Shown: piece by piece, positions 1 through 19,307 of the stretch
Layout of the letters: the number at the start of each line of letters is the position of its first letter
Position numbering within the stretch: the stretch's first letter is position 1
Source of the DNA: Flectonema sp. DT1601
Lineage: Eukaryota
Assembly (NCBI GenBank): GCA_964019425.1
Contig: OZ025799.1
Location: 1,299,230-1,319,229 of the forward strand
DNA length: 20,000 nt
Reading direction: 5' to 3'
Translations under genes and position numbers: made by a program
Notes under the pieces: generated by a model
The model's input: the letters and a program-made list of their open reading frames with translations, nothing else
Told to the model about the DNA's origin: nothing
Database searches by the model: none

Positions 1-963
1 GTTGTAAACGTTTTTTCTTGTTTATTGGAAATCAAAAAAGAATGTGCAGCTGATTTCTTAGAAATATCCGGCCAACACGGCATTTTCTTTTCCGAACACA
101 AAAGCACTCAACACCTCTCCTCCTACTACACAATTGTGTGGACCCCTGACACACCTTACACCCAGCTTAAAAAGATAGCAATCGATCTCAATAAAGACCC
201 AAAAAACAAAGGAGCCCTCGGGCTCACAATGTACCAAGGAAGAAGCCTTGGGATACGAATTAAAAAAGAATCAGAAACAAACTTTCGTTCAAATTTTGGA
301 GTAAAATGTCCGACTTATTTCGAGATAAGCGGCATAAGCAAAGAGAACGCAACGTCATTTGACGTTGAATTTTTTTTTGATTTAATGAAAAAAAAAATTA
401 AATACTGTTATAAAAAAAAAAGGGAAGAGTCACATGTTGTGAGCTCGTACGAGAATCTGCAGTCTTGCGGATCAGTAATCGTTAAAAAAATAACTCAACC
501 CTCAAAAGATGAAAGAAGAATTGAAAAGAACTCAATAGAAACGAAAACAGACCAAACTGAAAAAAAAGATATTAACGAAAAAGGAAAAGGAAAAGGAAAA
601 GGGAAAGGGAAAAAAGGAAAGAAAGGAACTAAGGGAGAGAGCGGTAAAGGAAAAAAAACTGTTTTGTCATCACCGTCAACCTCAGTAACCCCGTCAATAG
701 AACAAACGGACATTTTAAACCAGCTAAAATTATTGTTAGATGCACAAACAAAGCATCTAACAACAAAGATCATTGGCACTTTTCTAGCCGATGATCCGAA
801 AAAGCAAGCAGAAGCTTGGGATGCGGAAATAAACCCGCAAGAAAAAGAAGGTTTTCTACAAGGATCGATGGACGATGACATCGATCTTGTGAAACAGAAG
901 CTGGACAAAGAAAACGATGGTGATGACAACACAAAAAGAAAAAAAGAAGAACCTCCGAATTGA
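1..963 (+). CDS. Retrotransposon ORF1-like protein (5'-partial), with basic GK-rich low-complexity tract
   Basis: Frame 1 is open from base 1 (VVNVFSCLLEIKK...); the track's 'M' at 25 is a TTG. Ends at TGA 961-963. Contains KGKGKGKGKGKKGKKG and an acidic C-terminus. Sits directly upstream of ORF2. No family motif recognised. Confidence 0.75.
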   Translation, partial: VVNVFSCLLEIKKECAADFLEISGQHGIFFSEHKSTQHLSSYYTIVWTPDTPYTQLKKIAIDLNKDPKNKGALGLTMYQGRSLGIRIKKESETNFRSNFGVKCPTYFEISGISKENATSFDVEFFFDLMKKKIKYCYKKKREESHVVSSYENLQSCGSVIVKKITQPSKDERRIEKNSIETKTDQTEKKDINEKGKGKGKGKGKKGKKGTKGESGKGKKTVLSSPSTSVTPSIEQTDILNQLKLLLDAQTKHLTTKIIGTFLADDPKKQAEAWDAEINPQEKEGFLQGSMDDDIDLVKQKLDKENDGDDNTKRKKEEPPN

Positions 964-1041
964 CTGTTTCCTTATAATTTATATCTTTTTTATTTCTCGA
1001 ACCTTCTTTTGTGTGGAGACATCCACCCGAACCCCGGTCCA
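964..1041 (+). other. 2A-like (StopGo) ribosomal-skipping peptide coding sequence
   Basis: Frame 1 after the ORF1 TGA reads LFPYNLYLFYFSNLLLCGDIHPNPGP. This matches D(V/I)ExNPG|P with E->H and directly precedes the APE N-terminus. Confidence 0.8.
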
Positions 1042-4000
1042 CAAAAAAAGCAAAAAAACAGTGAGCTGAGAATTGTATCTTTTAATGTTTGTGGTCTCAA
1101 GTCGAAATCCGACGAAATAACTTTTTTTTTTACAAAATATAAAACCTGACCTATTCATGGTTCAGGAAACATTGTTAAAGGATAACGACGAAACCATTAA
1201 TTTTAATGGGTACAAGTGTCTCAGAAGAGACCGGAGAATTCCGGTAAAAAAAAACGCACCCGTCAGAGGTGGTGGATTGGCAATTTTTTACAAAAACAGC
1301 CTAAGCGTGACAGCATTCGCTGTTGCACAACACAGCCAAGACTGCACTGAAGTCCAGGGCATTTTTGTGTCAAATTCAAAACAAACTGTAAGGGTATACA
1401 ACGTGTACAGACCACCGGTAAGCCAATCAACCTCTGATAGGTCCCCCTCTTTTGATATGAATAGTATTTTTCTTTTTAATAAAAATGATAAAGTAGTTAT
1501 CGCGGGGGATCTTAACGCAAGGCATCCACTCTGGGACCCGAGAGACGAGTCAAACACAAATGGCCATGAAGTCTCGACTTTTCTAAACAATAACCAGTTT
1601 GAATGCTGCAACGTTAAGGAAATCCCCACAAGACCAAAATCAAACACTTCTCCTGATGTTGTTCTCCAAAAAAACTGTGATATTGGCAACTGGACGACGC
1701 TCGAATCTCTATCAAGCGATCATGTACCAATGTATTTTTCTCTTTCTTTTTTTTCGGATTCGATAAACAGAGCGAACGGTGCAACGGTTTTTTCTTATAA
1801 TTGGAACAGGGCACTGTGGCCAAACTACAGCTCCCACCTCGAAAGGGTGGCGAAGCGACTTGAAAAGATTCAAGATAACCAGAAATTATCAATGGAATTC
1901 ATAAAAGAATTAAAAAATGCGTTACGGATCTTTGTACCAAGGATTTATTTGAAAGGAAAGTCACCAAAGAAGTGGTGGAACACGACGGTTGCATCTAAGT
2001 TTCATGAGTTCAACGAGTCACATTGTGACCAACGGGATGATCTTACAGATCTGTCGCAACAGGGAAAGTCAATTTTTACATCTTTAAAAAAAGAACTCAA
2101 AAAAACAGTCGTTGATGCCAAGAATCAACAGTTTAAAAAAAGCCTTAAAAAAGACAAGTCTATTATTGAAGCTTTTGAAGACATAAGAGGCCTTGATGGA
2201 AGATCAAGACTTAAAGAAATTCGAGAAATCACCTGTGGTGATAAACTTGTTACAGATGATGTGGAAAAAGCATCAATTTTCAATAATCAATTTTTACAAC
2301 GTGTTGGTAACATCAAAGAAAAAACAAAGACAAAGAAAATAGAAACAGACCCTTCTGATTTTACACCATTTACACAACATGAACTTAGAATCCAATTGAG
2401 AGGAATGGCTCTGGAAAAGAATTCACCAGATGGCGTTCAAGGTATTCTTCTTAACCATTTGGGACCTAGAATGCTAAACATTTTACTTAAGATTTTTAAC
2501 AATTCGTGGAAACATTCTGTTGTCCCGAGTGATTGGAAAGACACACACTGGATCCCTGTTTTAAAAAAAGGAAAACCCCCAAACCTCCCCTCTTCATATA
2601 GAATGATCTCTCTCACCCCTTTTATTGCGAAATTGATGGAAAGAATGGTGAAGGAACGTCTTACGTATTTTATGCAATCACCGAATGAAAAGAAAACTGA
2701 CGGTATTGGTTTCAACCAAACTTCTTATCGGAAAACGCGTTCTTGCCGGGAAAACATCCTATATGTTACGGACAGACTTAGATTTCTTAAACACCAAAAA
2801 AAGTCAGCGGCCCTTGTTCTTCTTGATATCGAAAAAGCTTTTGATAGTGTGAACCATGATCTTCTCCTTCAAAGGATGGTAGATCTTGGAATACCAAAAC
2901 ATTTTATAGCCTGGATTCAGGCCTTTCTTAAAAAACGAAGAGCAGCGGTTGTTGTTAATAATGAAAAAGGTTCTTACCACAATGTTTATTCTGGCGTTCC
3001 ACAAGGAACAGTTTTGTCGGCTCTACTTTTTACTCTGTATATTGAAAAAGTCGCAGAAAGACTAGATATTACGGTTGCTAAGTATGCGGATGATATTGCT
3101 TTTGTAGTTGATGATGAAGGGAAAGGTTTTACTTATCATTTGGCAAAAACGAAATATTTCTTTAATGAGATTGAAAAGGATCTAAACGAATTAAAATTAA
3201 AAGTAAGTTATGAGCCTGACAAAACAAAACTTGTGTATTATCCCTACTCCCCAAATTCCCCACTACAAACACCTTTCACTTTTACTTCAAATTTAACAAA
3301 AAATATTGTTCCATGTGTTGATAGCGCCAAGCTTCTTGGGGTGATCCTTGATAACAAGCTCGATTGGAAACAGCATATCTCGTATATTTGTAGAAGAGTT
3401 AATCTTCGCTTAAGGTATCTGAAGCTTGTCGCATCAAAAGCATGGGGACAGTGTACTGCAACTTTGCGTGAGGTGTATGATTTGTATATTCGACCTGTCA
3501 TAACAAACTCGTGTGAAGCTTTTTATCCTGAAGTTAGGTATAAAAAGATTCACATGGACAGGCTTCTCTCTTTACACCTTAGGGGTGCGTGCTATGTCTT
3601 AGGTGCCTTACCACCAACAAGGGAAACAAGAGATAAGATCTTTTTTGAGGCACAACAACAAAGTATCAACACCCATTTGAGACTTGAAACTGGTAGATGG
3701 TTCGCCAAAATGGCGCGAATCACGTCCCCTTTATTAAATGTCTTTATTCCACCTGAAAGAATATCCTCAACACCCATTGATTCTTTTACTCGTTTAGGAA
3801 TGAATGTTCTGAAAGAACACAACCTTCTATCACTCAGTTTTGAGAAATATCCCATTTACGTTCATCCTCCATGGAGTTTTTCAAATGATTTCAATGTTTT
3901 TAAACCAGAAATGCATGTTAGAAAAAAAAAAGACAAAAAGAAAAATAAAAAAGCCTGTGAAGCTGTTCTTAATGAAATAAGGAAAGATTATGAACCAGTC

Positions 4001-4909
4001 TTAGAGGTATATACCGATGGTGCCGTTGTTGAAGAACGCGGTGCTGCGGGTGTGTACATCATAGACAGCGAAGGAAATGAATTTCTCACAAACAAAAGTG
4101 AAGCAGGAATAATCTGCACCTCTTTTAGGGCTGAAATGATGGCGATCAAAAACGCTTTTGTTTTACTTTTTAAGGAATTTAAACCGCCGGAAAATGCGTC
4201 AGTTTTATTTGTGTCAGACTCCTCCAGTGCCTTGATGGAACTGGAAAAAGGGGGAACAAAACAGAAAACGAGACTAGGAAGCCGCATCTGGCAGTTTATT
4301 GAATTTTTCAACAATAAATTCAAAACAAAGTTTATTTTCCAGCATGTCTTTTCTCACTGTGGTATTGTCGGAAACGAAGAAGCAGACAAACTAGCCCAAA
4401 ACATTTCATTAAAAAAAGATGAAGAAACCCTTTTAAAACAAAAAAAAGTTCCCATAGACTACAGCACCCATGTAGCTAAACTAAAACACAGAATAAAAGA
4501 AAAATTTGACCCCCGTCCTTTCCCATCTGAAACTGAAAGAGCGGAAGAAATTCTGATTTCACAACTCAGAATTGGCGACTGTAAACAAACACAAGGGAAA
4601 TGTCCTAGGTGCAGAGAAAAAGACTCTGTAGAGCACCTGTTAGCAAAATGCTCAAAGTACAGAAAAGAGAGGAGGATGTATCTCCAGAAAGACTCTCTAA
4701 CACAAGAAGAGTTAAAGGATTGTCTTTCCACTGTACAAGGACTAGAGAATGTTTTTCTTTTTATGTCATCTGCAAGAAGATATGTTTTTCCAGAAAAAGA
4801 AAAGAAAAAAGAAAATTTGAGTCAGGAAACAAAGAAAGAAAATGAAGAAAACGTTATCCTTCAACCCACACTTTTCAATACTGTGATTCAAAACTCACAA
4901 CTGACTTGA
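1039..4909 (+). CDS. ORF2 pol: AP endonuclease + reverse transcriptase + RNase H + C-terminal CCHC zinc knuckle; one-base frameshift near 1122-1144
   Basis: APE motif I LRIVSFNVCGL is in frame 1 (~1066-1098). Frame 2 carries PDLFMVQET, NVYRPP, AGDLNA and SSDH (APE); SYRMISLT, LLDIEKAFDSV, GVPQGTVLS and YADD at 3083-3094 (RT); VYTDGA, AEMMAI, VSDS and HVFSHCGIVGNEEADKLA at ~4007-4400 (RNase H); and C-X2-C-X7-H-X4-C at 4601-4651. The track ORF 1157-4909 starts at an internal Met. Confidence 0.93.
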
Positions 4910-5389
4910 TTTCTCAAGCTTCCAAATTAACCAAAGTAGCACCTACACCATGGGGATGGTCTGATTGTTGATTGACTGATGGGCCGATATAGATTGGACA
5001 CAGATCGAGAGTTTTTGAGAGATCTTAGATGAAAGTCCGCACCTTTCAGGCCATCCCCAAAAAGCACATAGCAGCTACAGCTATGTCAATTCAAATTGCG
5101 ACGAGCTGCAACTTCGACATGAAGTTTTTCGTTATTGTTCTTACCTTCTCCACATATTTACATATGTGATAAGTATAAGTCATATCTTACGATTGACAAT
5201 TCCTCCCCATAAATAAATTTCTTTTTATTATTTTATTTTACACCTGCCTTACTAACTTGGGGAGAAAGAAAGGATGAACAATGGGCCTCTTATGAGGTGG
5301 GCAATTGCCCTGGACCCACATTAAATGTACGCGTGTTTTGCGTCAGCCCGTTGCTGTAGAAAAAGAAGAGACAGTTTCAGGTAGTAATG
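4910..5389 (+). other. Retrotransposon 3' UTR with multiple stem-loops
   Basis: Lies between the ORF2 stop and poly(A). 14-bp stem 4951-4964/5046-5059 plus several 6-7 bp hairpins. Confidence 0.75.
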
Positions 5390-5412
5390 AAAAAAAAAAA
5401 AAAAAAAAAAAA
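5390..5412 (+). repeat. Poly(A) tail of the LINE (the last two A may be target-derived)
   Basis: A23 followed by tagcggat. Unit spacer elsewhere reads caggc|aatagcggat. Confidence 0.9.
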
Positions 5413-5682
5413 TAGCGGATTTTTTTATTTCTTGGGAGTTTCATGGGGCAACCCACCAGGAAAAAATTTAGAAAATTTTATTGATTTTGCAGAGTGGGGC
5501 TGGGGCTCGGTCTTAGCTTTAACGTTAACGTACGGGCGGCGAAAATTACGTCTTTCGGGGAAGAAAGCCAAAAAAGAAATATATTAAAATTTCTTTACGC
5601 AAAACGTAAAAATAGGAAACACGGTAAGTCTTTGTACATTTCCTTCTACTTGGCAAACACAAGTCCACCGACAATAAAAAAA

Positions 5683-6268
5683 CCCCAAAGGAAGAAAATT
5701 CTTCCTAAGAGGTCAGCTAAATATTCCAAGCAAGCTCGGATGTTGAGACTGTACCAATAAAGTACAGTAATTGCGCTTGCCTTCCATATCATGCACCTGA
5801 CGAATGAAATGTATAGATGAAACTAATTAAACTAATAAAACAAACTAATGGATCAAACTAGCAAACACAGAGAAGCTGTCTAAGACAGTTTATTGCGTTG
5901 GGGTAGTGGCTGGTGCCCGTTTCGATTCGGCGTGATAAATTTATTAGAATCCAAATTATTTAAACTATAACAAAAAGACAACTTAGCACCAAAACTCCAT
6001 GATTTTTTACTGCTAACTGAATTAGCAGCCGAACACCTAGATTTCAAAACCAGATTGCCTACTAAAAGGAGTCCTTTCTCATCCTATTATACCTTATCTA
6101 TCTTTCCTAAACCTGCTTATGCGCAGAAATCCAGCATCTTTTCCTTGGGCAAAAACCTTTCTTACTTTTCTAGTAAGAAAGTTTTCTGCCTAAATTCTGG
6201 TGCATTTTGGATGGCTGCGCAATTACTGAAATAAATTTGCAAAAACTGTAGCTTTAGAATCGTTGGTT
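5683..6268 (-). pseudogene. SL RNA gene interrupted by a 475-bp insertion between exon nt 26 and 27
   Basis: Exon nt 1-26 at 6268-6243; exon nt 27-39 and intron resume at 5767. Confidence 0.85.
5765..6242. mobile_element. MITE-like non-coding element with imperfect ~35-bp inverted repeats, inside the SL exon (copy 1)
   Basis: Extra sequence 5768-6242 (475 bp) relative to empty units. cagtaattgcgc (5765-5776) is the exact reverse complement of gcgcaattactg (6217-6228); the match extends imperfectly over 5765-5800/6196-6228. Confidence 0.75.
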
Positions 6269-6371
6269 AACCTTAAAAAGTAGTTACCCCAGGTAATTAG
6301 AAATTGTGTGGCTTTTAGAACTACCAGCCAGAACTAACAGAAATGCCTGCTTGCGGGTAGGGAAGTAAGGG

Positions 6372-6376
6372 AAAAA
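6372..6376 (-). terminator. Pol III terminator (T5) of the 5S gene; repeated in every unit
   Basis: Minus strand reads ...GCAGGC TTTTT CCC at the 5S 3' end. Confidence 0.8.
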
Positions 6377-6495
6377 GCCTGCAAGCACCCGGGGTTCCCA
6401 CGTGATCACTCACCGCAGTACTAACCAGGCCTGCTGGTGCTTAACTTCCCAAATCGGGCGGGATGGGGTGCATTCACCAGAGTATGGCCGCAGGC
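6376..6495 (-). rRNA. rrn5: 5S rRNA
   Basis: Reverse complement GCCTGCGGCCATACTCTGGTGAATGCACCCCATCCCGCCCGATTTGGGAAGTTAAGCACCAGCAGGCCTGGTTAGTACTGCGGTGAGTGATCACGTGGGAACCCCGGGTGCTTGCAGGCT. 120 nt, with conserved CCATAC, GAAGTTAAGC, GTTAGTACT and GGGAA, terminal helix I and a T-run terminator. Confidence 0.97.
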
Positions 6496-6760
6496 AATAG
6501 CGGATTTTTTTATTTCTTGGGAGTTTCATGGGGCAACCCACCAGGAAAAAATTTAGAAAATTTTATTGATTTTGCAGAGTGGGGCTGGGGCTCGGTCTTA
6601 GCTTTAACGTTAACGTACGGGCGGCGAAAATTACGTCTTTCGGGGAAGAAAGCCAAAAAAGAAATATATTAAAATTTCTTTACGCAAAACGTAAAAATAG
6701 GAAACACGGTAAGTCTTTGTACATTTCCTTCTACTTGGCAAACACAAGTCCACGGACAAT

Positions 6761-6767
6761 AAAAAAA
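6761..6767 (-). terminator. T7 tract at the 3' end of the SL RNA gene; repeated in every unit
   Basis: Follows hairpin AGGAAGAA-TT-TTCTTCCT. Kinetoplastid SL RNA genes end in a T tract. Confidence 0.65.
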
Positions 6768-6878
6768 CCCCAAAGGAAGAAAATTCTTCCTAAGAGGTCA
6801 GCTAAATATTCCAAGCAAGCTCGGATGTTGAGACTGTACCAATAAAGTACAGAAACTGTAGCTTTAGAATCGTTGGTT
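6768..6878 (-). ncRNA. Spliced-leader (SL, mini-exon) RNA, ~110 nt
   Basis: 39-nt exon AACCAACGATTCTAAAGCTACAGTTTCTGTACTTTATTG (6878-6840) followed by a GT donor. The 3' half CAGTTTCTGTACTTTATTG is the conserved kinetoplastid/diplonemid SL. The intron has hairpin CCGAG-CTTG-CTTGG, an Sm-like AATATTTAG and a terminal hairpin before the T tract. The 3' end is approximate. Confidence 0.95.
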
Positions 6879-6985
6879 AACCTTAAAAAGTAGTTACCCC
6901 AGGTAATTAGAAATTGTGTGGCTTTTAGAACTACCAGCCAGAACTAACAGAAATGCCTGCTTGCGGGTAGGGAAGTAAGGGAAAA
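6879..6985 (-). promoter_or_regulatory. Putative SL RNA upstream promoter region (107-bp gap between 5S 3' end and SL +1)
   Basis: Inferred from position only: kinetoplastid SL promoters lie within ~80 bp upstream of +1. No element identified by sequence. Confidence 0.5.
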
Positions 6986-7105
6986 AGCCTGCAAGCACCC
7001 GGGGTTCCCACGTGATCACTCACCGCAGTACTAACCAGGCCTGCTGGTGCTTAACTTCCCAAATCGGGCGGGATGGGGTGCATTCACCAGAGTATGGCCG
7101 CAGGC
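6986..7105 (-). rRNA. rrn5: 5S rRNA
   Basis: Copy of 6376-6495. Confidence 0.97.
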
Positions 7106-7377
7106 AATAGCGGATTTTTTTATTTCTTGGGAGTTTCATGGGGCAACCCACCAGGAAAAAATTTAGAAAATTTTATTGATTTTGCAGAGTGGGGCTGGGG
7201 CTCGGTCTTAGCTTTAACGTTAACGTACGGGCGGCGAAAATTACGTCTTTCGGGGAAGAAAGCCAAAAAAGAAATATATTAAAATTTCTTTACGCAAAAC
7301 GTAAAAATAGGAAACACGGTAAGTCTTTGTACATTTCCTTCTACTTGGCAAACACAAGTCCACGGACAATAAAAAAA

Positions 7378-7488
7378 CCCCAAAGGAAGAAAATTCTTCC
7401 TAAGAGGTCAGCTAAATATTCCAAGCAAGCTCGGATGTTGAGACTGTACCAATAAAGTACAGAAACTGTAGCTTTAGAATCGTTGGTT
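7378..7488 (-). ncRNA. SL RNA
   Basis: Copy of 6768-6878. Confidence 0.95.
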
Positions 7489-7595
7489 AACCTTAAAAAG
7501 TAGTTACCCCAGGTAATTAGAAATTGTGTGGCTTTTAGAACTACCAGCCAGAACTAACAGAAATGCCTGCTTGCGGGTAGGGAAGTAAGGGAAAA

Positions 7596-7715
7596 AGCCT
7601 GCAAGCACCCGGGGTTCCCACGTGATCACTCACCGCAGTACTAACCAGGCCTGCTGGTGCTTAACTTCCCAAATCGGGCGGGATGGGGTGCATTCACCAG
7701 AGTATGGCCGCAGGC
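7596..7715 (-). rRNA. rrn5: 5S rRNA
   Basis: Copy of 6376-6495. Confidence 0.97.
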
Positions 7716-7987
7716 AATAGCGGATTTTTTTATTTCTTGGGAGTTTCATGGGGCAACCCACCAGGAAAAAATTTAGAAAATTTTATTGATTTTGCAGAGT
7801 GGGGCTGGGGCTCGGTCTTAGCTTTAACGTTAACGTACGGGCGGCGAAAATTACGTCTTTCGGGGAAGAAAGCCAAAAAAGAAATATATTAAAATTTCTT
7901 TACGCAAAACGTAAAAATAGGAAACACGGTAAGTCTTTGTACATTTCCTTCTACTTGGCAAACACAAGTCCACGGACAATAAAAAAA

Positions 7988-8098
7988 CCCCAAAGGAAGA
8001 AAATTCTTCCTAAGAGGTCAGCTAAATATTCCAAGCAAGCTCGGATGTTGAGACTGTACCAATAAAGTACAGAAACTGTAGCTTTAGAATCGTTGGTT
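7988..8098 (-). ncRNA. SL RNA
   Basis: Copy of 6768-6878. Confidence 0.95.
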
Positions 8099-8205
8099 AA
8101 CCTTAAAAAGTAGTTACCCCAGGTAATTAGAAATTGTGTGGCTTTTAGAACTACCAGCCAGAACTAACAGAAATGCCTGCTTGCGGGTAGGGAAGTAAGG
8201 GAAAA

Positions 8206-8325
8206 AGCCTGCAAGCACCCGGGGTTCCCACGTGATCACTCACCGCAGTACTAACCAGGCCTGCTGGTGCTTAACTTCCCAAATCGGGCGGGATGGGGTG
8301 CATTCACCAGAGTATGGCCGCAGGC
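8206..8325 (-). rRNA. rrn5: 5S rRNA
   Basis: Copy of 6376-6495. Confidence 0.97.
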
Positions 8326-8597
8326 AATAGCGGATTTTTTTATTTCTTGGGAGTTTCATGGGGCAACCCACCAGGAAAAAATTTAGAAAATTTTATTGAT
8401 TTTGCAGAGTGGGGCTGGGGCTCGGTCTTAGCTTTAACGTTAACGTACGGGCGGCGAAAATTACGTCTTTCGGGGAAGAAAGCCAAAAAAGAAATATATT
8501 AAAATTTCTTTACGCAAAACGTAAAAATAGGAAACACGGTAAGTCTTTGTACATTTCCTTCTACTTGGCAAACACAAGTCCACGGACAATAAAAAAA

Positions 8598-8708
8598 CCC
8601 CAAAGGAAGAAAATTCTTCCTAAGAGGTCAGCTAAATATTCCAAGCAAGCTCGGATGTTGAGACTGTACCAATAAAGTACAGAAACTGTAGCTTTAGAAT
8701 CGTTGGTT
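8598..8708 (-). ncRNA. SL RNA
   Basis: Copy of 6768-6878. Confidence 0.95.
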
Positions 8709-8815
8709 AACCTTAAAAAGTAGTTACCCCAGGTAATTAGAAATTGTGTGGCTTTTAGAACTACCAGCCAGAACTAACAGAAATGCCTGCTTGCGGGTAG
8801 GGAAGTAAGGGAAAA

Positions 8816-8935
8816 AGCCTGCAAGCACCCGGGGTTCCCACGTGATCACTCACCGCAGTACTAACCAGGCCTGCTGGTGCTTAACTTCCCAAATCGGGCG
8901 GGATGGGGTGCATTCACCAGAGTATGGCCGCAGGC
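8816..8935 (-). rRNA. rrn5: 5S rRNA
   Basis: Copy of 6376-6495. Confidence 0.97.
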
Positions 8936-9207
8936 AATAGCGGATTTTTTTATTTCTTGGGAGTTTCATGGGGCAACCCACCAGGAAAAAATTTAGAAAA
9001 TTTTATTGATTTTGCAGAGTGGGGCTGGGGCTCGGTCTTAGCTTTAACGTTAACGTACGGGCGGCGAAAATTACGTCTTTCGGGGAAGAAAGCCAAAAAA
9101 GAAATATATTAAAATTTCTTTACGCAAAACGTAAAAATAGGAAACACGGTAAGTCTTTGTACATTTCCTTCTACTTGGCAAACACAAGTCCACGGACAAT
9201 AAAAAAA

Positions 9208-9793
9208 CCCCAAAGGAAGAAAATTCTTCCTAAGAGGTCAGCTAAATATTCCAAGCAAGCTCGGATGTTGAGACTGTACCAATAAAGTACAGTAATTGCG
9301 CTTGCCTTCCATATCATGCACCTGACGAATGAAATGTATAGATGAAACTAATTAAACTAATAAAACAAACTAATGGATCAAACTAGCAAACACAGAGAAG
9401 CTGTCTAAGACAGTTTATTGCGTTGGGGTAGTGGCTGGTGCCCGTTTCGATTCGGCGTGATAAATTTATTAGAATCCAAATTATTTAAACTATAACAAAA
9501 AGACAACTTAGCACCAAAACTCCATGATTTTTTACTGCTAACTGAATTAGCAGCCGAACACCTAGATTTCAAAACCAGATTGCCTACTAAAAGGAGTCCT
9601 TTCTCATCCTATTATACCTTATCTATCTTTCCTAAACCTGCTTATGCGCAGAAATCCAGCATCTTTTCCTTGGGCAAAAACCTTTCTTACTTTTCTAGTA
9701 AGAAAGTTTTCTGCCTAAATTCTGGTGCATTTTGGATGGCTGCGCAATTACTGAAATAAATTTGCAAAAACTGTAGCTTTAGAATCGTTGGTT
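9208..9793 (-). pseudogene. SL RNA gene interrupted by the 475-bp insertion
   Basis: Same junctions as 5683-6268. Confidence 0.85.
9290..9767. mobile_element. MITE-like element in SL exon (copy 2)
   Basis: Extra sequence 9293-9767, appears identical to copy 1. Confidence 0.75.
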
Positions 9794-9900
9794 AACCTTA
9801 AAAAGTAGTTACCCCAGGTAATTAGAAATTGTGTGGCTTTTAGAACTACCAGCCAGAACTAACAGAAATGCCTGCTTGCGGGTAGGGAAGTAAGGGAAAA

Positions 9901-10020
9901 AGCCTGCAAGCACCCGGGGTTCCCACGTGATCACTCACCGCAGTACTAACCAGGCCTGCTGGTGCTTAACTTCCCAAATCGGGCGGGATGGGGTGCATTC
10001 ACCAGAGTATGGCCGCAGGC
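9901..10020 (-). rRNA. rrn5: 5S rRNA
   Basis: Copy of 6376-6495. Confidence 0.97.
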
Positions 10021-10292
10021 AATAGCGGATTTTTTTATTTCTTGGGAGTTTCATGGGGCAACCCACCAGGAAAAAATTTAGAAAATTTTATTGATTTTGC
10101 AGAGTGGGGCTGGGGCTCGGTCTTAGCTTTAACGTTAACGTACGGGCGGCGAAAATTACGTCTTTCGGGGAAGAAAGCCAAAAAAGAAATATATTAAAAT
10201 TTCTTTACGCAAAACGTAAAAATAGGAAACACGGTAAGTCTTTGTACATTTCCTTCTACTTGGCAAACACAAGTCCACGGACAATAAAAAAA

Positions 10293-10403
10293 CCCCAAAG
10301 GAAGAAAATTCTTCCTAAGAGGTCAGCTAAATATTCCAAGCAAGCTCGGATGTTGAGACTGTACCAATAAAGTACAGAAACTGTAGCTTTAGAATCGTTG
10401 GTT
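10293..10403 (-). ncRNA. SL RNA
   Basis: Copy of 6768-6878. Confidence 0.95.
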
Positions 10404-10510
10404 AACCTTAAAAAGTAGTTACCCCAGGTAATTAGAAATTGTGTGGCTTTTAGAACTACCAGCCAGAACTAACAGAAATGCCTGCTTGCGGGTAGGGAAG
10501 TAAGGGAAAA

Positions 10511-10630
10511 AGCCTGCAAGCACCCGGGGTTCCCACGTGATCACTCACCGCAGTACTAACCAGGCCTGCTGGTGCTTAACTTCCCAAATCGGGCGGGATG
10601 GGGTGCATTCACCAGAGTATGGCCGCAGGC
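10511..10630 (-). rRNA. rrn5: 5S rRNA
   Basis: Copy of 6376-6495. Confidence 0.97.
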
Positions 10631-10902
10631 AATAGCGGATTTTTTTATTTCTTGGGAGTTTCATGGGGCAACCCACCAGGAAAAAATTTAGAAAATTTTA
10701 TTGATTTTGCAGAGTGGGGCTGGGGCTCGGTCTTAGCTTTAACGTTAACGTACGGGCGGCGAAAATTACGTCTTTCGGGGAAGAAAGCCAAAAAAGAAAT
10801 ATATTAAAATTTCTTTACGCAAAACGTAAAAATAGGAAACACGGTAAGTCTTTGTACATTTCCTTCTACTTGGCAAACACAAGTCCACGGACAATAAAAA
10901 AA

Positions 10903-11013
10903 CCCCAAAGGAAGAAAATTCTTCCTAAGAGGTCAGCTAAATATTCCAAGCAAGCTCGGATGTTGAGACTGTACCAATAAAGTACAGAAACTGTAGCTTT
11001 AGAATCGTTGGTT
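10903..11013 (-). ncRNA. SL RNA
   Basis: Copy of 6768-6878. Confidence 0.95.
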
Positions 11014-11120
11014 AACCTTAAAAAGTAGTTACCCCAGGTAATTAGAAATTGTGTGGCTTTTAGAACTACCAGCCAGAACTAACAGAAATGCCTGCTTGCG
11101 GGTAGGGAAGTAAGGGAAAA

Positions 11121-11240
11121 AGCCTGCAAGCACCCGGGGTTCCCACGTGATCACTCACCGCAGTACTAACCAGGCCTGCTGGTGCTTAACTTCCCAAATC
11201 GGGCGGGATGGGGTGCATTCACCAGAGTATGGCCGCAGGC
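11121..11240 (-). rRNA. rrn5: 5S rRNA
   Basis: Copy of 6376-6495. Confidence 0.97.
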
Positions 11241-11512
11241 AATAGCGGATTTTTTTATTTCTTGGGAGTTTCATGGGGCAACCCACCAGGAAAAAATTTA
11301 GAAAATTTTATTGATTTTGCAGAGTGGGGCTGGGGCTCGGTCTTAGCTTTAACGTTAACGTACGGGCGGCGAAAATTACGTCTTTCGGGGAAGAAAGCCA
11401 AAAAAGAAATATATTAAAATTTCTTTACGCAAAACGTAAAAATAGGAAACACGGTAAGTCTTTGTACATTTCCTTCTACTTGGCAAACACAAGTCCACGG
11501 ACAATAAAAAAA

Positions 11513-11623
11513 CCCCAAAGGAAGAAAATTCTTCCTAAGAGGTCAGCTAAATATTCCAAGCAAGCTCGGATGTTGAGACTGTACCAATAAAGTACAGAAA
11601 CTGTAGCTTTAGAATCGTTGGTT
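11513..11623 (-). ncRNA. SL RNA
   Basis: Copy of 6768-6878. Confidence 0.95.
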
Positions 11624-11730
11624 AACCTTAAAAAGTAGTTACCCCAGGTAATTAGAAATTGTGTGGCTTTTAGAACTACCAGCCAGAACTAACAGAAATG
11701 CCTGCTTGCGGGTAGGGAAGTAAGGGAAAA

Positions 11731-11850
11731 AGCCTGCAAGCACCCGGGGTTCCCACGTGATCACTCACCGCAGTACTAACCAGGCCTGCTGGTGCTTAAC
11801 TTCCCAAATCGGGCGGGATGGGGTGCATTCACCAGAGTATGGCCGCAGGC
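11731..11850 (-). rRNA. rrn5: 5S rRNA
   Basis: Copy of 6376-6495. Confidence 0.97.
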
Positions 11851-12122
11851 AATAGCGGATTTTTTTATTTCTTGGGAGTTTCATGGGGCAACCCACCAGG
11901 AAAAAATTTAGAAAATTTTATTGATTTTGCAGAGTGGGGCTGGGGCTCGGTCTTAGCTTTAACGTTAACGTACGGGCGGCGAAAATTACGTCTTTCGGGG
12001 AAGAAAGCCAAAAAAGAAATATATTAAAATTTCTTTACGCAAAACGTAAAAATAGGAAACACGGTAAGTCTTTGTACATTTCCTTCTACTTGGCAAACAC
12101 AAGTCCACGGACAATAAAAAAA

Positions 12123-12233
12123 CCCCAAAGGAAGAAAATTCTTCCTAAGAGGTCAGCTAAATATTCCAAGCAAGCTCGGATGTTGAGACTGTACCAATAA
12201 AGTACAGAAACTGTAGCTTTAGAATCGTTGGTT
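12123..12233 (-). ncRNA. SL RNA
   Basis: Copy of 6768-6878. Confidence 0.95.
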
Positions 12234-12340
12234 AACCTTAAAAAGTAGTTACCCCAGGTAATTAGAAATTGTGTGGCTTTTAGAACTACCAGCCAGAACT
12301 AACAGAAATGCCTGCTTGCGGGTAGGGAAGTAAGGGAAAA

Positions 12341-12460
12341 AGCCTGCAAGCACCCGGGGTTCCCACGTGATCACTCACCGCAGTACTAACCAGGCCTGCT
12401 GGTGCTTAACTTCCCAAATCGGGCGGGATGGGGTGCATTCACCAGAGTATGGCCGCAGGC
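12341..12460 (-). rRNA. rrn5: 5S rRNA
   Basis: Copy of 6376-6495. Confidence 0.97.
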
Positions 12461-12732
12461 AATAGCGGATTTTTTTATTTCTTGGGAGTTTCATGGGGCA
12501 ACCCACCAGGAAAAAATTTAGAAAATTTTATTGATTTTGCAGAGTGGGGCTGGGGCTCGGTCTTAGCTTTAACGTTAACGTACGGGCGGCGAAAATTACG
12601 TCTTTCGGGGAAGAAAGCCAAAAAAGAAATATATTAAAATTTCTTTACGCAAAACGTAAAAATAGGAAACACGGTAAGTCTTTGTACATTTCCTTCTACT
12701 TGGCAAACACAAGTCCACGGACAATAAAAAAA

Positions 12733-12843
12733 CCCCAAAGGAAGAAAATTCTTCCTAAGAGGTCAGCTAAATATTCCAAGCAAGCTCGGATGTTGAGACT
12801 GTACCAATAAAGTACAGAAACTGTAGCTTTAGAATCGTTGGTT
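12733..12843 (-). ncRNA. SL RNA
   Basis: Copy of 6768-6878. Confidence 0.95.
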
Positions 12844-12950
12844 AACCTTAAAAAGTAGTTACCCCAGGTAATTAGAAATTGTGTGGCTTTTAGAACTACC
12901 AGCCAGAACTAACAGAAATGCCTGCTTGCGGGTAGGGAAGTAAGGGAAAA

Positions 12951-13070
12951 AGCCTGCAAGCACCCGGGGTTCCCACGTGATCACTCACCGCAGTACTAAC
13001 CAGGCCTGCTGGTGCTTAACTTCCCAAATCGGGCGGGATGGGGTGCATTCACCAGAGTATGGCCGCAGGC
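12951..13070 (-). rRNA. rrn5: 5S rRNA
   Basis: Copy of 6376-6495. Confidence 0.97.
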
Positions 13071-13342
13071 AATAGCGGATTTTTTTATTTCTTGGGAGTT
13101 TCATGGGGCAACCCACCAGGAAAAAATTTAGAAAATTTTATTGATTTTGCAGAGTGGGGCTGGGGCTCGGTCTTAGCTTTAACGTTAACGTACGGGCGGC
13201 GAAAATTACGTCTTTCGGGGAAGAAAGCCAAAAAAGAAATATATTAAAATTTCTTTACGCAAAACGTAAAAATAGGAAACACGGTAAGTCTTTGTACATT
13301 TCCTTCTACTTGGCAAACACAAGTCCACGGACAATAAAAAAA

Positions 13343-13453
13343 CCCCAAAGGAAGAAAATTCTTCCTAAGAGGTCAGCTAAATATTCCAAGCAAGCTCGGA
13401 TGTTGAGACTGTACCAATAAAGTACAGAAACTGTAGCTTTAGAATCGTTGGTT
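13343..13453 (-). ncRNA. SL RNA
   Basis: Copy of 6768-6878. Confidence 0.95.
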
Positions 13454-13560
13454 AACCTTAAAAAGTAGTTACCCCAGGTAATTAGAAATTGTGTGGCTTT
13501 TAGAACTACCAGCCAGAACTAACAGAAATGCCTGCTTGCGGGTAGGGAAGTAAGGGAAAA

Positions 13561-13680
13561 AGCCTGCAAGCACCCGGGGTTCCCACGTGATCACTCACCG
13601 CAGTACTAACCAGGCCTGCTGGTGCTTAACTTCCCAAATCGGGCGGGATGGGGTGCATTCACCAGAGTATGGCCGCAGGC
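13561..13680 (-). rRNA. rrn5: 5S rRNA
   Basis: Copy of 6376-6495. Confidence 0.97.
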
Positions 13681-13952
13681 AATAGCGGATTTTTTTATTT
13701 CTTGGGAGTTTCATGGGGCAACCCACCAGGAAAAAATTTAGAAAATTTTATTGATTTTGCAGAGTGGGGCTGGGGCTCGGTCTTAGCTTTAACGTTAACG
13801 TACGGGCGGCGAAAATTACGTCTTTCGGGGAAGAAAGCCAAAAAAGAAATATATTAAAATTTCTTTACGCAAAACGTAAAAATAGGAAACACGGTAAGTC
13901 TTTGTACATTTCCTTCTACTTGGCAAACACAAGTCCACGGACAATAAAAAAA

Positions 13953-14063
13953 CCCCAAAGGAAGAAAATTCTTCCTAAGAGGTCAGCTAAATATTCCAAG
14001 CAAGCTCGGATGTTGAGACTGTACCAATAAAGTACAGAAACTGTAGCTTTAGAATCGTTGGTT
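13953..14063 (-). ncRNA. SL RNA
   Basis: Copy of 6768-6878. Confidence 0.95.
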
Positions 14064-14170
14064 AACCTTAAAAAGTAGTTACCCCAGGTAATTAGAAATT
14101 GTGTGGCTTTTAGAACTACCAGCCAGAACTAACAGAAATGCCTGCTTGCGGGTAGGGAAGTAAGGGAAAA

Positions 14171-14290
14171 AGCCTGCAAGCACCCGGGGTTCCCACGTGA
14201 TCACTCACCGCAGTACTAACCAGGCCTGCTGGTGCTTAACTTCCCAAATCGGGCGGGATGGGGTGCATTCACCAGAGTATGGCCGCAGGC
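14171..14290 (-). rRNA. rrn5: 5S rRNA
   Basis: Copy of 6376-6495. Confidence 0.97.
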
Positions 14291-14562
14291 AATAGCGGAT
14301 TTTTTTATTTCTTGGGAGTTTCATGGGGCAACCCACCAGGAAAAAATTTAGAAAATTTTATTGATTTTGCAGAGTGGGGCTGGGGCTCGGTCTTAGCTTT
14401 AACGTTAACGTACGGGCGGCGAAAATTACGTCTTTCGGGGAAGAAAGCCAAAAAAGAAATATATTAAAATTTCTTTACGCAAAACGTAAAAATAGGAAAC
14501 ACGGTAAGTCTTTGTACATTTCCTTCTACTTGGCAAACACAAGTCCACGGACAATAAAAAAA

Positions 14563-14673
14563 CCCCAAAGGAAGAAAATTCTTCCTAAGAGGTCAGCTAA
14601 ATATTCCAAGCAAGCTCGGATGTTGAGACTGTACCAATAAAGTACAGAAACTGTAGCTTTAGAATCGTTGGTT
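14563..14673 (-). ncRNA. SL RNA
   Basis: Copy of 6768-6878. Confidence 0.95.
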
Positions 14674-14780
14674 AACCTTAAAAAGTAGTTACCCCAGGTA
14701 ATTAGAAATTGTGTGGCTTTTAGAACTACCAGCCAGAACTAACAGAAATGCCTGCTTGCGGGTAGGGAAGTAAGGGAAAA

Positions 14781-14900
14781 AGCCTGCAAGCACCCGGGGT
14801 TCCCACGTGATCACTCACCGCAGTACTAACCAGGCCTGCTGGTGCTTAACTTCCCAAATCGGGCGGGATGGGGTGCATTCACCAGAGTATGGCCGCAGGC
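14781..14900 (-). rRNA. rrn5: 5S rRNA
   Basis: Copy of 6376-6495. Confidence 0.97.
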
Positions 14901-15172
14901 AATAGCGGATTTTTTTATTTCTTGGGAGTTTCATGGGGCAACCCACCAGGAAAAAATTTAGAAAATTTTATTGATTTTGCAGAGTGGGGCTGGGGCTCGG
15001 TCTTAGCTTTAACGTTAACGTACGGGCGGCGAAAATTACGTCTTTCGGGGAAGAAAGCCAAAAAAGAAATATATTAAAATTTCTTTACGCAAAACGTAAA
15101 AATAGGAAACACGGTAAGTCTTTGTACATTTCCTTCTACTTGGCAAACACAAGTCCACGGACAATAAAAAAA

Positions 15173-15758
15173 CCCCAAAGGAAGAAAATTCTTCCTAAGA
15201 GGTCAGCTAAATATTCCAAGCAAGCTCGGATGTTGAGACTGTACCAATAAAGTACAGTAATTGCGCTTGCCTTCCATATCATGCACCTGACGAATGAAAT
15301 GTATAGATGAAACTAATTAAACTAATAAAACAAACTAATGGATCAAACTAGCAAACACAGAGAAGCTGTCTAAGACAGTTTATTGCGTTGGGGTAGTGGC
15401 TGGTGCCCGTTTCGATTCGGCGTGATAAATTTATTAGAATCCAAATTATTTAAACTATAACAAAAAGACAACTTAGCACCAAAACTCCATGATTTTTTAC
15501 TGCTAACTGAATTAGCAGCCGAACACCTAGATTTCAAAACCAGATTGCCTACTAAAAGGAGTCCTTTCTCATCCTATTATACCTTATCTATCTTTCCTAA
15601 ACCTGCTTATGCGCAGAAATCCAGCATCTTTTCCTTGGGCAAAAACCTTTCTTACTTTTCTAGTAAGAAAGTTTTCTGCCTAAATTCTGGTGCATTTTGG
15701 ATGGCTGCGCAATTACTGAAATAAATTTGCAAAAACTGTAGCTTTAGAATCGTTGGTT
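15173..15758 (-). pseudogene. SL RNA gene interrupted by the 475-bp insertion
   Basis: Same junctions as 5683-6268. Confidence 0.85.
15255..15732. mobile_element. MITE-like element in SL exon (copy 3)
   Basis: Extra sequence 15258-15732, appears identical to copy 1. Confidence 0.75.
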
Positions 15759-15865
15759 AACCTTAAAAAGTAGTTACCCCAGGTAATTAGAAATTGTGTG
15801 GCTTTTAGAACTACCAGCCAGAACTAACAGAAATGCCTGCTTGCGGGTAGGGAAGTAAGGGAAAA

Positions 15866-15985
15866 AGCCTGCAAGCACCCGGGGTTCCCACGTGATCACT
15901 CACCGCAGTACTAACCAGGCCTGCTGGTGCTTAACTTCCCAAATCGGGCGGGATGGGGTGCATTCACCAGAGTATGGCCGCAGGC
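15866..15985 (-). rRNA. rrn5: 5S rRNA
   Basis: Copy of 6376-6495. Confidence 0.97.
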
Positions 15986-16257
15986 AATAGCGGATTTTTT
16001 TATTTCTTGGGAGTTTCATGGGGCAACCCACCAGGAAAAAATTTAGAAAATTTTATTGATTTTGCAGAGTGGGGCTGGGGCTCGGTCTTAGCTTTAACGT
16101 TAACGTACGGGCGGCGAAAATTACGTCTTTCGGGGAAGAAAGCCAAAAAAGAAATATATTAAAATTTCTTTACGCAAAACGTAAAAATAGGAAACACGGT
16201 AAGTCTTTGTACATTTCCTTCTACTTGGCAAACACAAGTCCACGGACAATAAAAAAA

Positions 16258-16368
16258 CCCCAAAGGAAGAAAATTCTTCCTAAGAGGTCAGCTAAATATT
16301 CCAAGCAAGCTCGGATGTTGAGACTGTACCAATAAAGTACAGAAACTGTAGCTTTAGAATCGTTGGTT
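16258..16368 (-). ncRNA. SL RNA
   Basis: Copy of 6768-6878. Confidence 0.95.
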
Positions 16369-16475
16369 AACCTTAAAAAGTAGTTACCCCAGGTAATTAG
16401 AAATTGTGTGGCTTTTAGAACTACCAGCCAGAACTAACAGAAATGCCTGCTTGCGGGTAGGGAAGTAAGGGAAAA

Positions 16476-16595
16476 AGCCTGCAAGCACCCGGGGTTCCCA
16501 CGTGATCACTCACCGCAGTACTAACCAGGCCTGCTGGTGCTTAACTTCCCAAATCGGGCGGGATGGGGTGCATTCACCAGAGTATGGCCGCAGGC
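16476..16595 (-). rRNA. rrn5: 5S rRNA
   Basis: Copy of 6376-6495. Confidence 0.97.
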
Positions 16596-16867
16596 AATAG
16601 CGGATTTTTTTATTTCTTGGGAGTTTCATGGGGCAACCCACCAGGAAAAAATTTAGAAAATTTTATTGATTTTGCAGAGTGGGGCTGGGGCTCGGTCTTA
16701 GCTTTAACGTTAACGTACGGGCGGCGAAAATTACGTCTTTCGGGGAAGAAAGCCAAAAAAGAAATATATTAAAATTTCTTTACGCAAAACGTAAAAATAG
16801 GAAACACGGTAAGTCTTTGTACATTTCCTTCTACTTGGCAAACACAAGTCCACGGACAATAAAAAAA

Positions 16868-16978
16868 CCCCAAAGGAAGAAAATTCTTCCTAAGAGGTCA
16901 GCTAAATATTCCAAGCAAGCTCGGATGTTGAGACTGTACCAATAAAGTACAGAAACTGTAGCTTTAGAATCGTTGGTT
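16868..16978 (-). ncRNA. SL RNA
   Basis: Copy of 6768-6878. Confidence 0.95.
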
Positions 16979-17085
16979 AACCTTAAAAAGTAGTTACCCC
17001 AGGTAATTAGAAATTGTGTGGCTTTTAGAACTACCAGCCAGAACTAACAGAAATGCCTGCTTGCGGGTAGGGAAGTAAGGGAAAA

Positions 17086-17205
17086 AGCCTGCAAGCACCC
17101 GGGGTTCCCACGTGATCACTCACCGCAGTACTAACCAGGCCTGCTGGTGCTTAACTTCCCAAATCGGGCGGGATGGGGTGCATTCACCAGAGTATGGCCG
17201 CAGGC
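17086..17205 (-). rRNA. rrn5: 5S rRNA
   Basis: Copy of 6376-6495. Confidence 0.97.
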
Positions 17206-17477
17206 AATAGCGGATTTTTTTATTTCTTGGGAGTTTCATGGGGCAACCCACCAGGAAAAAATTTAGAAAATTTTATTGATTTTGCAGAGTGGGGCTGGGG
17301 CTCGGTCTTAGCTTTAACGTTAACGTACGGGCGGCGAAAATTACGTCTTTCGGGGAAGAAAGCCAAAAAAGAAATATATTAAAATTTCTTTACGCAAAAC
17401 GTAAAAATAGGAAACACGGTAAGTCTTTGTACATTTCCTTCTACTTGGCAAACACAAGTCCACGGACAATAAAAAAA

Positions 17478-17588
17478 CCCCAAAGGAAGAAAATTCTTCC
17501 TAAGAGGTCAGCTAAATATTCCAAGCAAGCTCGGATGTTGAGACTGTACCAATAAAGTACAGAAACTGTAGCTTTAGAATCGTTGGTT
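17478..17588 (-). ncRNA. SL RNA
   Basis: Copy of 6768-6878. Confidence 0.95.
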
Positions 17589-17695
17589 AACCTTAAAAAG
17601 TAGTTACCCCAGGTAATTAGAAATTGTGTGGCTTTTAGAACTACCAGCCAGAACTAACAGAAATGCCTGCTTGCGGGTAGGGAAGTAAGGGAAAA

Positions 17696-17815
17696 AGCCT
17701 GCAAGCACCCGGGGTTCCCACGTGATCACTCACCGCAGTACTAACCAGGCCTGCTGGTGCTTAACTTCCCAAATCGGGCGGGATGGGGTGCATTCACCAG
17801 AGTATGGCCGCAGGC
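17696..17815 (-). rRNA. rrn5: 5S rRNA
   Basis: Copy of 6376-6495. Confidence 0.97.
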
Positions 17816-18087
17816 AATAGCGGATTTTTTTATTTCTTGGGAGTTTCATGGGGCAACCCACCAGGAAAAAATTTAGAAAATTTTATTGATTTTGCAGAGT
17901 GGGGCTGGGGCTCGGTCTTAGCTTTAACGTTAACGTACGGGCGGCGAAAATTACGTCTTTCGGGGAAGAAAGCCAAAAAAGAAATATATTAAAATTTCTT
18001 TACGCAAAACGTAAAAATAGGAAACACGGTAAGTCTTTGTACATTTCCTTCTACTTGGCAAACACAAGTCCACGGACAATAAAAAAA

Positions 18088-18198
18088 CCCCAAAGGAAGA
18101 AAATTCTTCCTAAGAGGTCAGCTAAATATTCCAAGCAAGCTCGGATGTTGAGACTGTACCAATAAAGTACAGAAACTGTAGCTTTAGAATCGTTGGTT
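18088..18198 (-). ncRNA. SL RNA
   Basis: Copy of 6768-6878. Confidence 0.95.
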
Positions 18199-18305
18199 AA
18201 CCTTAAAAAGTAGTTACCCCAGGTAATTAGAAATTGTGTGGCTTTTAGAACTACCAGCCAGAACTAACAGAAATGCCTGCTTGCGGGTAGGGAAGTAAGG
18301 GAAAA

Positions 18306-18425
18306 AGCCTGCAAGCACCCGGGGTTCCCACGTGATCACTCACCGCAGTACTAACCAGGCCTGCTGGTGCTTAACTTCCCAAATCGGGCGGGATGGGGTG
18401 CATTCACCAGAGTATGGCCGCAGGC
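18306..18425 (-). rRNA. rrn5: 5S rRNA
   Basis: Copy of 6376-6495. Confidence 0.97.
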
Positions 18426-18697
18426 AATAGCGGATTTTTTTATTTCTTGGGAGTTTCATGGGGCAACCCACCAGGAAAAAATTTAGAAAATTTTATTGAT
18501 TTTGCAGAGTGGGGCTGGGGCTCGGTCTTAGCTTTAACGTTAACGTACGGGCGGCGAAAATTACGTCTTTCGGGGAAGAAAGCCAAAAAAGAAATATATT
18601 AAAATTTCTTTACGCAAAACGTAAAAATAGGAAACACGGTAAGTCTTTGTACATTTCCTTCTACTTGGCAAACACAAGTCCACGGACAATAAAAAAA

Positions 18698-18808
18698 CCC
18701 CAAAGGAAGAAAATTCTTCCTAAGAGGTCAGCTAAATATTCCAAGCAAGCTCGGATGTTGAGACTGTACCAATAAAGTACAGAAACTGTAGCTTTAGAAT
18801 CGTTGGTT
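18698..18808 (-). ncRNA. SL RNA
   Basis: Copy of 6768-6878. Confidence 0.95.
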
Positions 18809-18915
18809 AACCTTAAAAAGTAGTTACCCCAGGTAATTAGAAATTGTGTGGCTTTTAGAACTACCAGCCAGAACTAACAGAAATGCCTGCTTGCGGGTAG
18901 GGAAGTAAGGGAAAA

Positions 18916-19035
18916 AGCCTGCAAGCACCCGGGGTTCCCACGTGATCACTCACCGCAGTACTAACCAGGCCTGCTGGTGCTTAACTTCCCAAATCGGGCG
19001 GGATGGGGTGCATTCACCAGAGTATGGCCGCAGGC
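18916..19035 (-). rRNA. rrn5: 5S rRNA
   Basis: Copy of 6376-6495. Confidence 0.97.
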
Positions 19036-19307
19036 AATAGCGGATTTTTTTATTTCTTGGGAGTTTCATGGGGCAACCCACCAGGAAAAAATTTAGAAAA
19101 TTTTATTGATTTTGCAGAGTGGGGCTGGGGCTCGGTCTTAGCTTTAACGTTAACGTACGGGCGGCGAAAATTACGTCTTTCGGGGAAGAAAGCCAAAAAA
19201 GAAATATATTAAAATTTCTTTACGCAAAACGTAAAAATAGGAAACACGGTAAGTCTTTGTACATTTCCTTCTACTTGGCAAACACAAGTCCACGGACAAT
19301 AAAAAAA

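Follow-up and report, generated by a model that had tools for sequence, protein, structure and literature searches.

The 20 000-nucleotide stretch of contig OZ025799.1 (assembly GCA_964019425.1) that was analysed here as a whole, hereafter the window, starts with the 3' 5.4 kb of a long interspersed nuclear element (LINE), the 5' end of which lies upstream of the window, and continues as a tandem array of spliced leader (SL) RNA and 5S rRNA genes. The poly(A) tail of the LINE abuts the exact start of a 5S transcription unit. This junction is real and precise, and the LINE represents a new, young, recently active multicopy family, the host of which is likely a diplonemid. As to the choice of target, the account that we tentatively favor is that the family prefers RNA polymerase III (Pol III) start sites in general, that is, 5S and probably tRNA-type genes, rather than the 5S sequence as such. 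With slightly more reserve, it can be proposed that this is the first Pol III start-site-targeting LINE from the Euglenozoa and from the Ingi-like lineage with a 2A-like motif, an active diplonemid family that would insert with single-base precision at +1 of 5S genes, and a short distance upstream of tRNA-type genes, being tethered to the initiation complex, in a further independent origin of the strategy of Ty3, TRE5 and NLTR-A.

The evidence of the junction itself is straightforward. A scan of the window with Rfam identified 21 full-length 5S genes, all on the minus strand and all covering model positions 1-120. The plus-strand 10-mer that abuts the 5S +1 position is found 22 times in the window; in 21 cases, it lies directly beyond the 5' end of a 5S gene, and in the remaining case (5411), directly beyond the poly(A) of the LINE. 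The tail consists of 23 A (5390..5412, plus strand), the final two of which are equally assignable to the target; the junction corresponds to the -1 position of a 5S gene that is either absent or located upstream. Thus, the position at 5S +1/-1 and the orientation of the LINE, antisense to 5S, both proposed in the initial annotation, are confirmed. The empty-site sequence is defined by the first 5S gene of the array (6376..6495, minus strand, +1 at 6495; 98.7 bits). Because the first unit past the junction is complete (1085 bp, the same size as two other long units, from which it differs by a single base, at 5669), no target DNA was lost on the 3' side. The base at 5669 is C only in the LINE-adjoining unit, and G in all other units as well as in the independent sequencing runs X1-X4. 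Nine runs matched the window, none of them containing half of the window words and with no RNA run listed, and six were compared (X1-X5 and X7). The runs contain array sequence, including variants, and X2 also contains 284 nt of the LINE, with zero differences; none of the six bridges the junction in this comparison, which skips the poly(A) run.

The two-nucleotide A microhomology at the junction is compatible with target-primed reverse transcription, as initially suggested. Under the model of this process (PMC5814959; here and below, published statements are given as they stand in the accessible portions of the cited articles), the endonuclease of the element would nick the sense strand of the 5S gene at +1/-1, and the freed 3' end, terminating in TT, would pair with the poly(A) of the element RNA and prime reverse transcription. 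A 5S gene would then be expected beyond the 5' end of the element, head to head with it and accompanied by a short duplication. The targeting could be explained in two ways: the ribonucleoprotein might be attached to the initiation complex of Pol III, just as the ORF1 protein of TRE5-A binds TFIIIB, or else, the endonuclease might cut DNA that is left accessible at the point of helix opening by Pol III. The insertion would leave the internal promoter of the 5S gene intact while displacing its upstream spacer.

The family is represented by multiple copies. The cluster of proteins encoded by the second open reading frame (ORF2) of the element has 18 members, 15 of which were compared, and a search for shorter proteins added five high-identity fragments. 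Judging from coordinate overlaps, the number of copies is 14 or more, spread over a minimum of 12 long contigs (95 to 1390 kb, all from ENA), with two copies each on a 95-kb contig and a 343-kb contig; this count presumes that the contigs belong to one assembly, and could be inflated by haplotypes or strains. The copies differ from the window by only 0-11 residues, and therefore, the family is young. One copy (P0089/P0091, on a 385-kb contig) is split by foreign sequence at the position equivalent to 3763/3764 of the window, with no visible duplication, and ends early, around 4030; the foreign sequence is unrelated to the window. The nearest named relative of ORF2 is a 1265-aa protein from the transcriptome of Flectonema neradi, with 58% identity; there is thus at least one species with transcription of the lineage of the element. 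In a rapidly built reverse transcriptase tree of 81 regions (P0037 left out), the element groups with this F. neradi protein (P0096) and with P0106/P0107 (SH-aLRT 99); the rows of this tree include no named ingi or L1Tc, and the relatives are unnamed. Searches for ORF2 relatives found none in viral contigs or in JGI metagenome contigs (with two peptide patterns only), and the metagenome-assembled genomes (MAGs) behind the loci L001 and L002, both described below, yielded distant reverse transcriptase matches only, with no ORF2 relative.

A second flank is available for P0053, a 5'-truncated copy on the 95-kb contig, the first 29 residues of which are foreign to the element, the flank being known only as protein. 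These residues match no frame of the window or the 5S-SL unit, nor the upstream ORF1 in shifted frames, and, judged from the translation, the flank is firmly not 5S. It also had no match in phage records. A derivation from the element's own sequence, or an inversion thereof, was not matched either, as far as testable. When read antisense, the flank perfectly fits the A and B boxes of tRNA genes, with a spacing of 54 nt; the test employed the tRNA A/B-box consensus. Such a fit was reached by 5 of 3000 shuffles, none of the 1377 window peptides and 14 of the 33 control peptides (11 real tRNA genes of L001). The implied gene would start about 7-8 nt from the 5' end of the element, head to head, in the same geometry as predicted at 5S. 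U6-type template-switch chimeras carry the sense orientation, and such a chimera was rejected for P0053 because the box fit is antisense. The flank can be considered a weak lead for a tRNA-like element.

A general preference for Pol III start sites draws on the exact junction, the absence of target loss, the A microhomology and the low odds of a chance landing. The presence of copies on at least 12 contigs, two of these with two copies, is as expected of scattered, clustered Pol III genes, and L001 is such a euglenozoan cluster. The A/B-box fit of P0053, in the predicted head-to-head geometry, appears to point in the same direction, and NLTR-A, TRE5, Ty3 and Tj1 offer, by analogy, precedents of the same logic. 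Several considerations weigh against this reading. Only one junction is known as DNA, and no insertion is present at the 21 other 5S genes of the window. The best cloverleaf for the P0053 flank scores 55, with three violations, and is attained by 95 of 756 shuffles, and alignment with 11 real euglenozoan tRNAs scores 16.4, which is matched by 154 of 392 shuffles and exceeded by 30 of 33 real-tRNA controls (16.6-20.0 for a class II Ser control, with similar spacing); these two tests speak against an intact tRNA. The tRNA idea arose post hoc, after the flank had been inspected, and involves 29 residues only, and P0053-based patterns had no match in viral or JGI metagenome contigs. Furthermore, the spread over 12 contigs is equally compatible with plain dispersal, and the trypanosome elements ingi and L1Tc are dispersed, with a loose motif only (PMC3820030).

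Plain dispersal is the foremost alternative, one that we consider somewhat less probable: an Ingi-like family of the ordinary dispersed kind, the target motif of which is loose and A-primed, and one copy of which landed by chance at 5S +1, aided by open chromatin, and was noticed among very many windows. The copy numbers fit this scenario as well (at least 14 copies over at least 12 long contigs), as do the non-5S 5' flank of P0053, for which two of the three tRNA tests failed, the interruption of the P0089/P0091 copy by foreign sequence unrelated to the window, and the merely relative site specificity of the Ingi clade (PMC3820030). Moreover, any LINE with a poly(A) tail would make use of a site that begins with AA. 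However, the 610-bp unit contains 83 A-runs of two or more, both strands together, so that even within the array, an A-primed insertion would hit the exact site in about 1 of 83 cases, and in about 1 of 20 when four landmarks are deemed equally noticeable. If about 14 copies landed at random and the array is taken to make up 0.1% of the genome, the odds per family come to some 2 in 10 000, where both the array and the genome sizes are assumptions. In addition, the upstream signature of ingi6 is missing at the empty site, and the A/B-box fit of P0053 would have to be a second coincidence. When the low prior for targeting and the open chromatin at Pol III genes are weighed, targeting comes out somewhat ahead of chance, without the matter being settled.

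The initial annotation envisaged a family specific for the 5S start, and this claim is, in that form, not supported by the comparison of copies. The endonuclease of such a family would read the sequence around 5S +1, in the manner of R1- and Tx1-clade elements, with 5S genes or arrays located on many contigs. The exactness of the junction is what such specificity predicts, euglenozoan 5S genes may sit in small Pol III clusters (there are two in the 2.6-kb L001), and the target does not always adjoin 5'-truncated copies of other specific families, as in the case of Utopia (PMC4640811). Nevertheless, strict 5S specificity is doubtful, and we deem it unlikely, because the copies reside on at least 12 separate contigs of 95-1390 kb and the P0053 flank matches no frame of the unit; besides, target-specific APE elements have been reported mainly from the Tx1 and R1 clades (PMC4640811). 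Finally, it is highly improbable that the junction was formed later, by deletion or recombination at the array edge or by misassembly of two repeats: the LINE does sit at the visible edge of the array with its 5' side beyond the window, homopolymer frameshifts in many copies suggest error-prone long-read assembly, and no independent run spans the junction in the comparison that skips poly(A), but an intact poly(A) meets an intact unit with 2 nt shared, which is the signature of an insertion and not of an overlap join, and the LINE (284 nt without differences) and the array occur together in X2, a run of another study.

The architecture of the LINE is that proposed in the initial annotation, with AP-endonuclease (APE), reverse transcriptase and RNase H domains all detected above the Pfam cut-offs. 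The window includes the 3' part of ORF1 (1..963, plus strand), encoding the last 320 of 454 aa, which contains a basic Lys/Gly-rich stretch but no zinc knuckle and has no match in Pfam or the ESM Atlas. The full-length 454-aa protein is on record from three contigs (P0105, residues 135-454 of which are identical to the translation of 1-960); ORF1 begins outside the window, some 400 nt before its first base, and is terminated by TGA 961-963. Past this stop, the ORF1 frame continues through a linker (964..1041, plus strand) that consists of 18 codons followed by a 2A-like motif (1018-1041, with His in place of the consensus Glu), and then leads into APE, with no ATG in between. The 2A-like consensus and its place upstream of APE in ingi and L1Tc have been described (PMC5814959). 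The His-for-Glu variant is also found in three of the related proteins listed, and a 2A-like motif is present in 29 of the 149 top ORF2 relatives. This arrangement of the sequence suggests that the ORF1 stop is read through, with subsequent ribosome skipping at the 2A-like motif. In copy P0055, ORF2 starts with an ATG and overlaps the end of ORF1, via a T-run that is one base longer.

The APE domain (1066..1733, plus strand) is broken in frame at a 10-T run (1122-1131), in the window as well as in several copies; P0048 and P0055 are in frame across this run. Breaks of ORF2 at homopolymers are common among the copies and may be assembly errors, and because many copies break in this manner, the frameshift is not taken as a sign of inactivity. 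The plus strand further encodes the reverse transcriptase domain with YADD (2564..3334; PF00078, E 1e-34), RNase H (4001..4402; PF00075, E 4e-11) and the C-terminal CCHC zinc finger of ORF2 (4601..4651). The ORF2 stop at 4909 is followed by the 3' untranslated region (4910..5389), which matches no Rfam family. The search of the ESM Atlas with ORF2 retrieved only unnamed clusters with APE, reverse transcriptase and RNase H, and the relatives in the PDB are L1 and R2 proteins, at the reverse transcriptase level only.

The array (5411..20000, minus strand) comprises 18 identical 610-bp units, three 1085-bp units and one last partial unit. In each short unit, an intact 39-nt SL exon (for example, 6840..6878, minus strand) precedes GT and the SL intron; altogether, the window contains 18 intact and three interrupted copies. 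No Rfam family matched the SL gene, and no tRNA was found in the window. The exon is identical in 37 of 39 nt to the 'Euglenozoa 14' SL exon (PMC3795323), and linkage of SL and 5S genes in one repeat is known from Diplonema papillatum (PMC10161547). The SL exon and the F. neradi relative bear out the euglenozoan host initially assumed, and the SL gene in the unit, combined with the 58%-identical F. neradi element, makes a diplonemid likely. The 18 short units are 100% identical, and runs X1-X4 hold spacer variants that differ at many positions, which suggests strong homogenisation or consensus collapse in the array, and related strains or species as the source of the variants. The locus L001 (L001:1-2578), found within a bacterial MAG as a likely contaminant contig, is a GC-rich euglenozoan Pol III cluster with 10-11 tRNA genes, two 5S genes, SL, U5, U6 and the signal recognition particle RNA; its SL exon is identical to that of the window and its 5S is 93% identical.

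The LINE-adjoining unit additionally contains a separate element, a non-coding insertion of 475 bp in the SL exon (5768..6242), which is also present in the units at 8936 and 14901. It interrupts three of the 21 SL exons after nt 26, and has 12-bp inverted ends (5765-5776 and 6217-6228), with 14 extra bases on one side. The insertion is present in runs X1-X3, and the form that skips it in X1-X4; the X2 and X3 contigs diverge at 5935 into other sequence, a hint of a longer parent. No Rfam family matches it, and it may be an element of SL genes that resembles miniature inverted-repeat transposable elements. The known SL-targeting elements are retrotransposons that insert at nt 11/12, and Dada transposons, in contrast to this insertion, lack terminal inverted repeats.

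A copy of the SL exon of the window, without the intron, is located 18-19 nt downstream of a AAAATTGA-type motif in 12 of 12 cases in L003-L010, all from one 237-kb IMG/VR contig, and in L002 (G002:C13, which contains six copies). The loci L002-L010 are AT-rich and gene-dense, and the SL exon copies mostly precede an ORF that starts with ATG. In mimiviruses and Bodo saltans virus, this motif serves as the early promoter (PMC5871332). Judging by this arrangement, what is likely a giant virus of euglenozoans seems to supply its own transcripts with the host spliced leader by encoding it in cis. A PCIF1-like cap methyltransferase is encoded at L008:3032-4270; virus hallmark genes were found neither among the 22 ORFs scanned nor in G002. 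The literature search found no report of a virus-encoded spliced leader in cis.

It is mainly from the Tx1 and R1 clades that target-specific APE LINEs have been reported (PMC4640811), whereas those guided by Pol III have been described from dictyostelids (PMC5911963). If the family indeed prefers Pol III start sites, it would be a third, euglenozoan case, in an Ingi-like lineage, implying that such targeting arises repeatedly, and would provide a young, near-intact element with which to ask if the site is determined by ORF1, by the endonuclease or by the open promoter. Writing at +1 of a multicopy gene that has an internal promoter, such an element would also be a candidate safe-harbour tool for gene writing. 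If the landing was by chance, the finding amounts to a new diplonemid LINE family and no more. No report on a diplonemid or Ingi-like element located at 5S genes or Pol III start sites turned up in a literature search, in which Repbase and most subscription journals were not covered.

In its anatomy, the element resembles ingi and L1Tc, which are likewise euglenozoan, with a 2A-like motif before APE, the succession of APE, reverse transcriptase and RNase H, and a poly(A) tail (PMC5814959). These elements, however, have a single ORF, whereas the LINE of the window has a separate 454-aa ORF1, closed by TGA 961-963, and a CCHC finger; furthermore, they are dispersed, with a loose upstream motif and a 12-bp duplication, and no preference for 5S or Pol III genes is mentioned in the accessible portions of PMC5814959 and PMC3820030. 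The T-run signature located 7-10 nt upstream of the nick in ingi6 (PMC3820030) was not seen at the empty 5S site in a comparison by eye. A Pr77/HDV-like ribozyme at the 5' end is a further hallmark of the Ingi clade, and this end of the LINE lies upstream of the window. ORF2 combines APE, reverse transcriptase and a downstream RNase H in one ORF, which is the criterion for the I group, the RNase H-bearing clades of which are Ingi, I, Nimb, Loa, R1 and Tad1, along with Loner and Outcast (PMC4640811). RNase H alone does not place the element in this group because plant L1, Proto1, Dualen and NLTR-A/B carry it as well. Thus, the label 'Ingi-like' is apt for the architecture, but membership in the Ingi clade does not follow, given the separate ORF1 and a tree without named ingi.

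Membership in the CRE/SLACS/CZAR group, Mutsu or TRE5 was rejected, the endonuclease or the site being wrong; for the first two, the initial annotation had already drawn this distinction, and it holds, with APE present and a site that is neither SL nt 11/12 nor inside 5S. Mutsu belongs to the Tx1 clade. This zebrafish non-LTR (long terminal repeat) element also resides in 5S arrays, but inserts inside the 5S gene, disrupting it (PMC5340908), whereas the junction in the window is at +1/-1. CRE1, SLACS and CZAR are, similarly, euglenozoan elements of SL arrays, but target SL exon nt 11/12 (PMC5814959) with a restriction-like endonuclease (PMC4640811), in contrast to the APE and the 5S site found here.

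The precedents for Pol III targeting that were initially listed, namely, Ty3, TRE and Mutsu, did not include the closest one, NLTR-A of Dictyostelium purpureum. Ty3 of yeast and Tj1 of Schizosaccharomyces japonicus integrate no more than a few bp from Pol III start sites, which in the case of Tj1 include 5S (PMC5911963), but these are LTR elements that employ an integrase and not target-primed reverse transcription. TRE5-A of Dictyostelium discoideum is an APE LINE that inserts upstream of tRNA and 5S genes, in the opposite orientation, with its ORF1 protein binding TFIIIB (PMC5911963); it differs in being L1-related, lacking RNase H and inserting not at +1 but upstream, by 37-41 bp in the case of 5S and by 40-54 bp in that of tRNA genes. 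NLTR-A, together with NLTR-B of Polysphondylium pallidum, cannot be placed in the known RNase H-bearing clades according to PMC5006619, and differs from the LINE of the window in its amoebozoan host, in its reported targets, which are tRNA genes only, and in that no 2A motif is mentioned in the accessible text. Likened by description, it is nevertheless the closest in the mode of action, being also a non-LTR element with ORF1, APE, reverse transcriptase and RNase H, and sitting 2-6 bp upstream of mature tRNA sequences (PMC5006619, PMC5911963).

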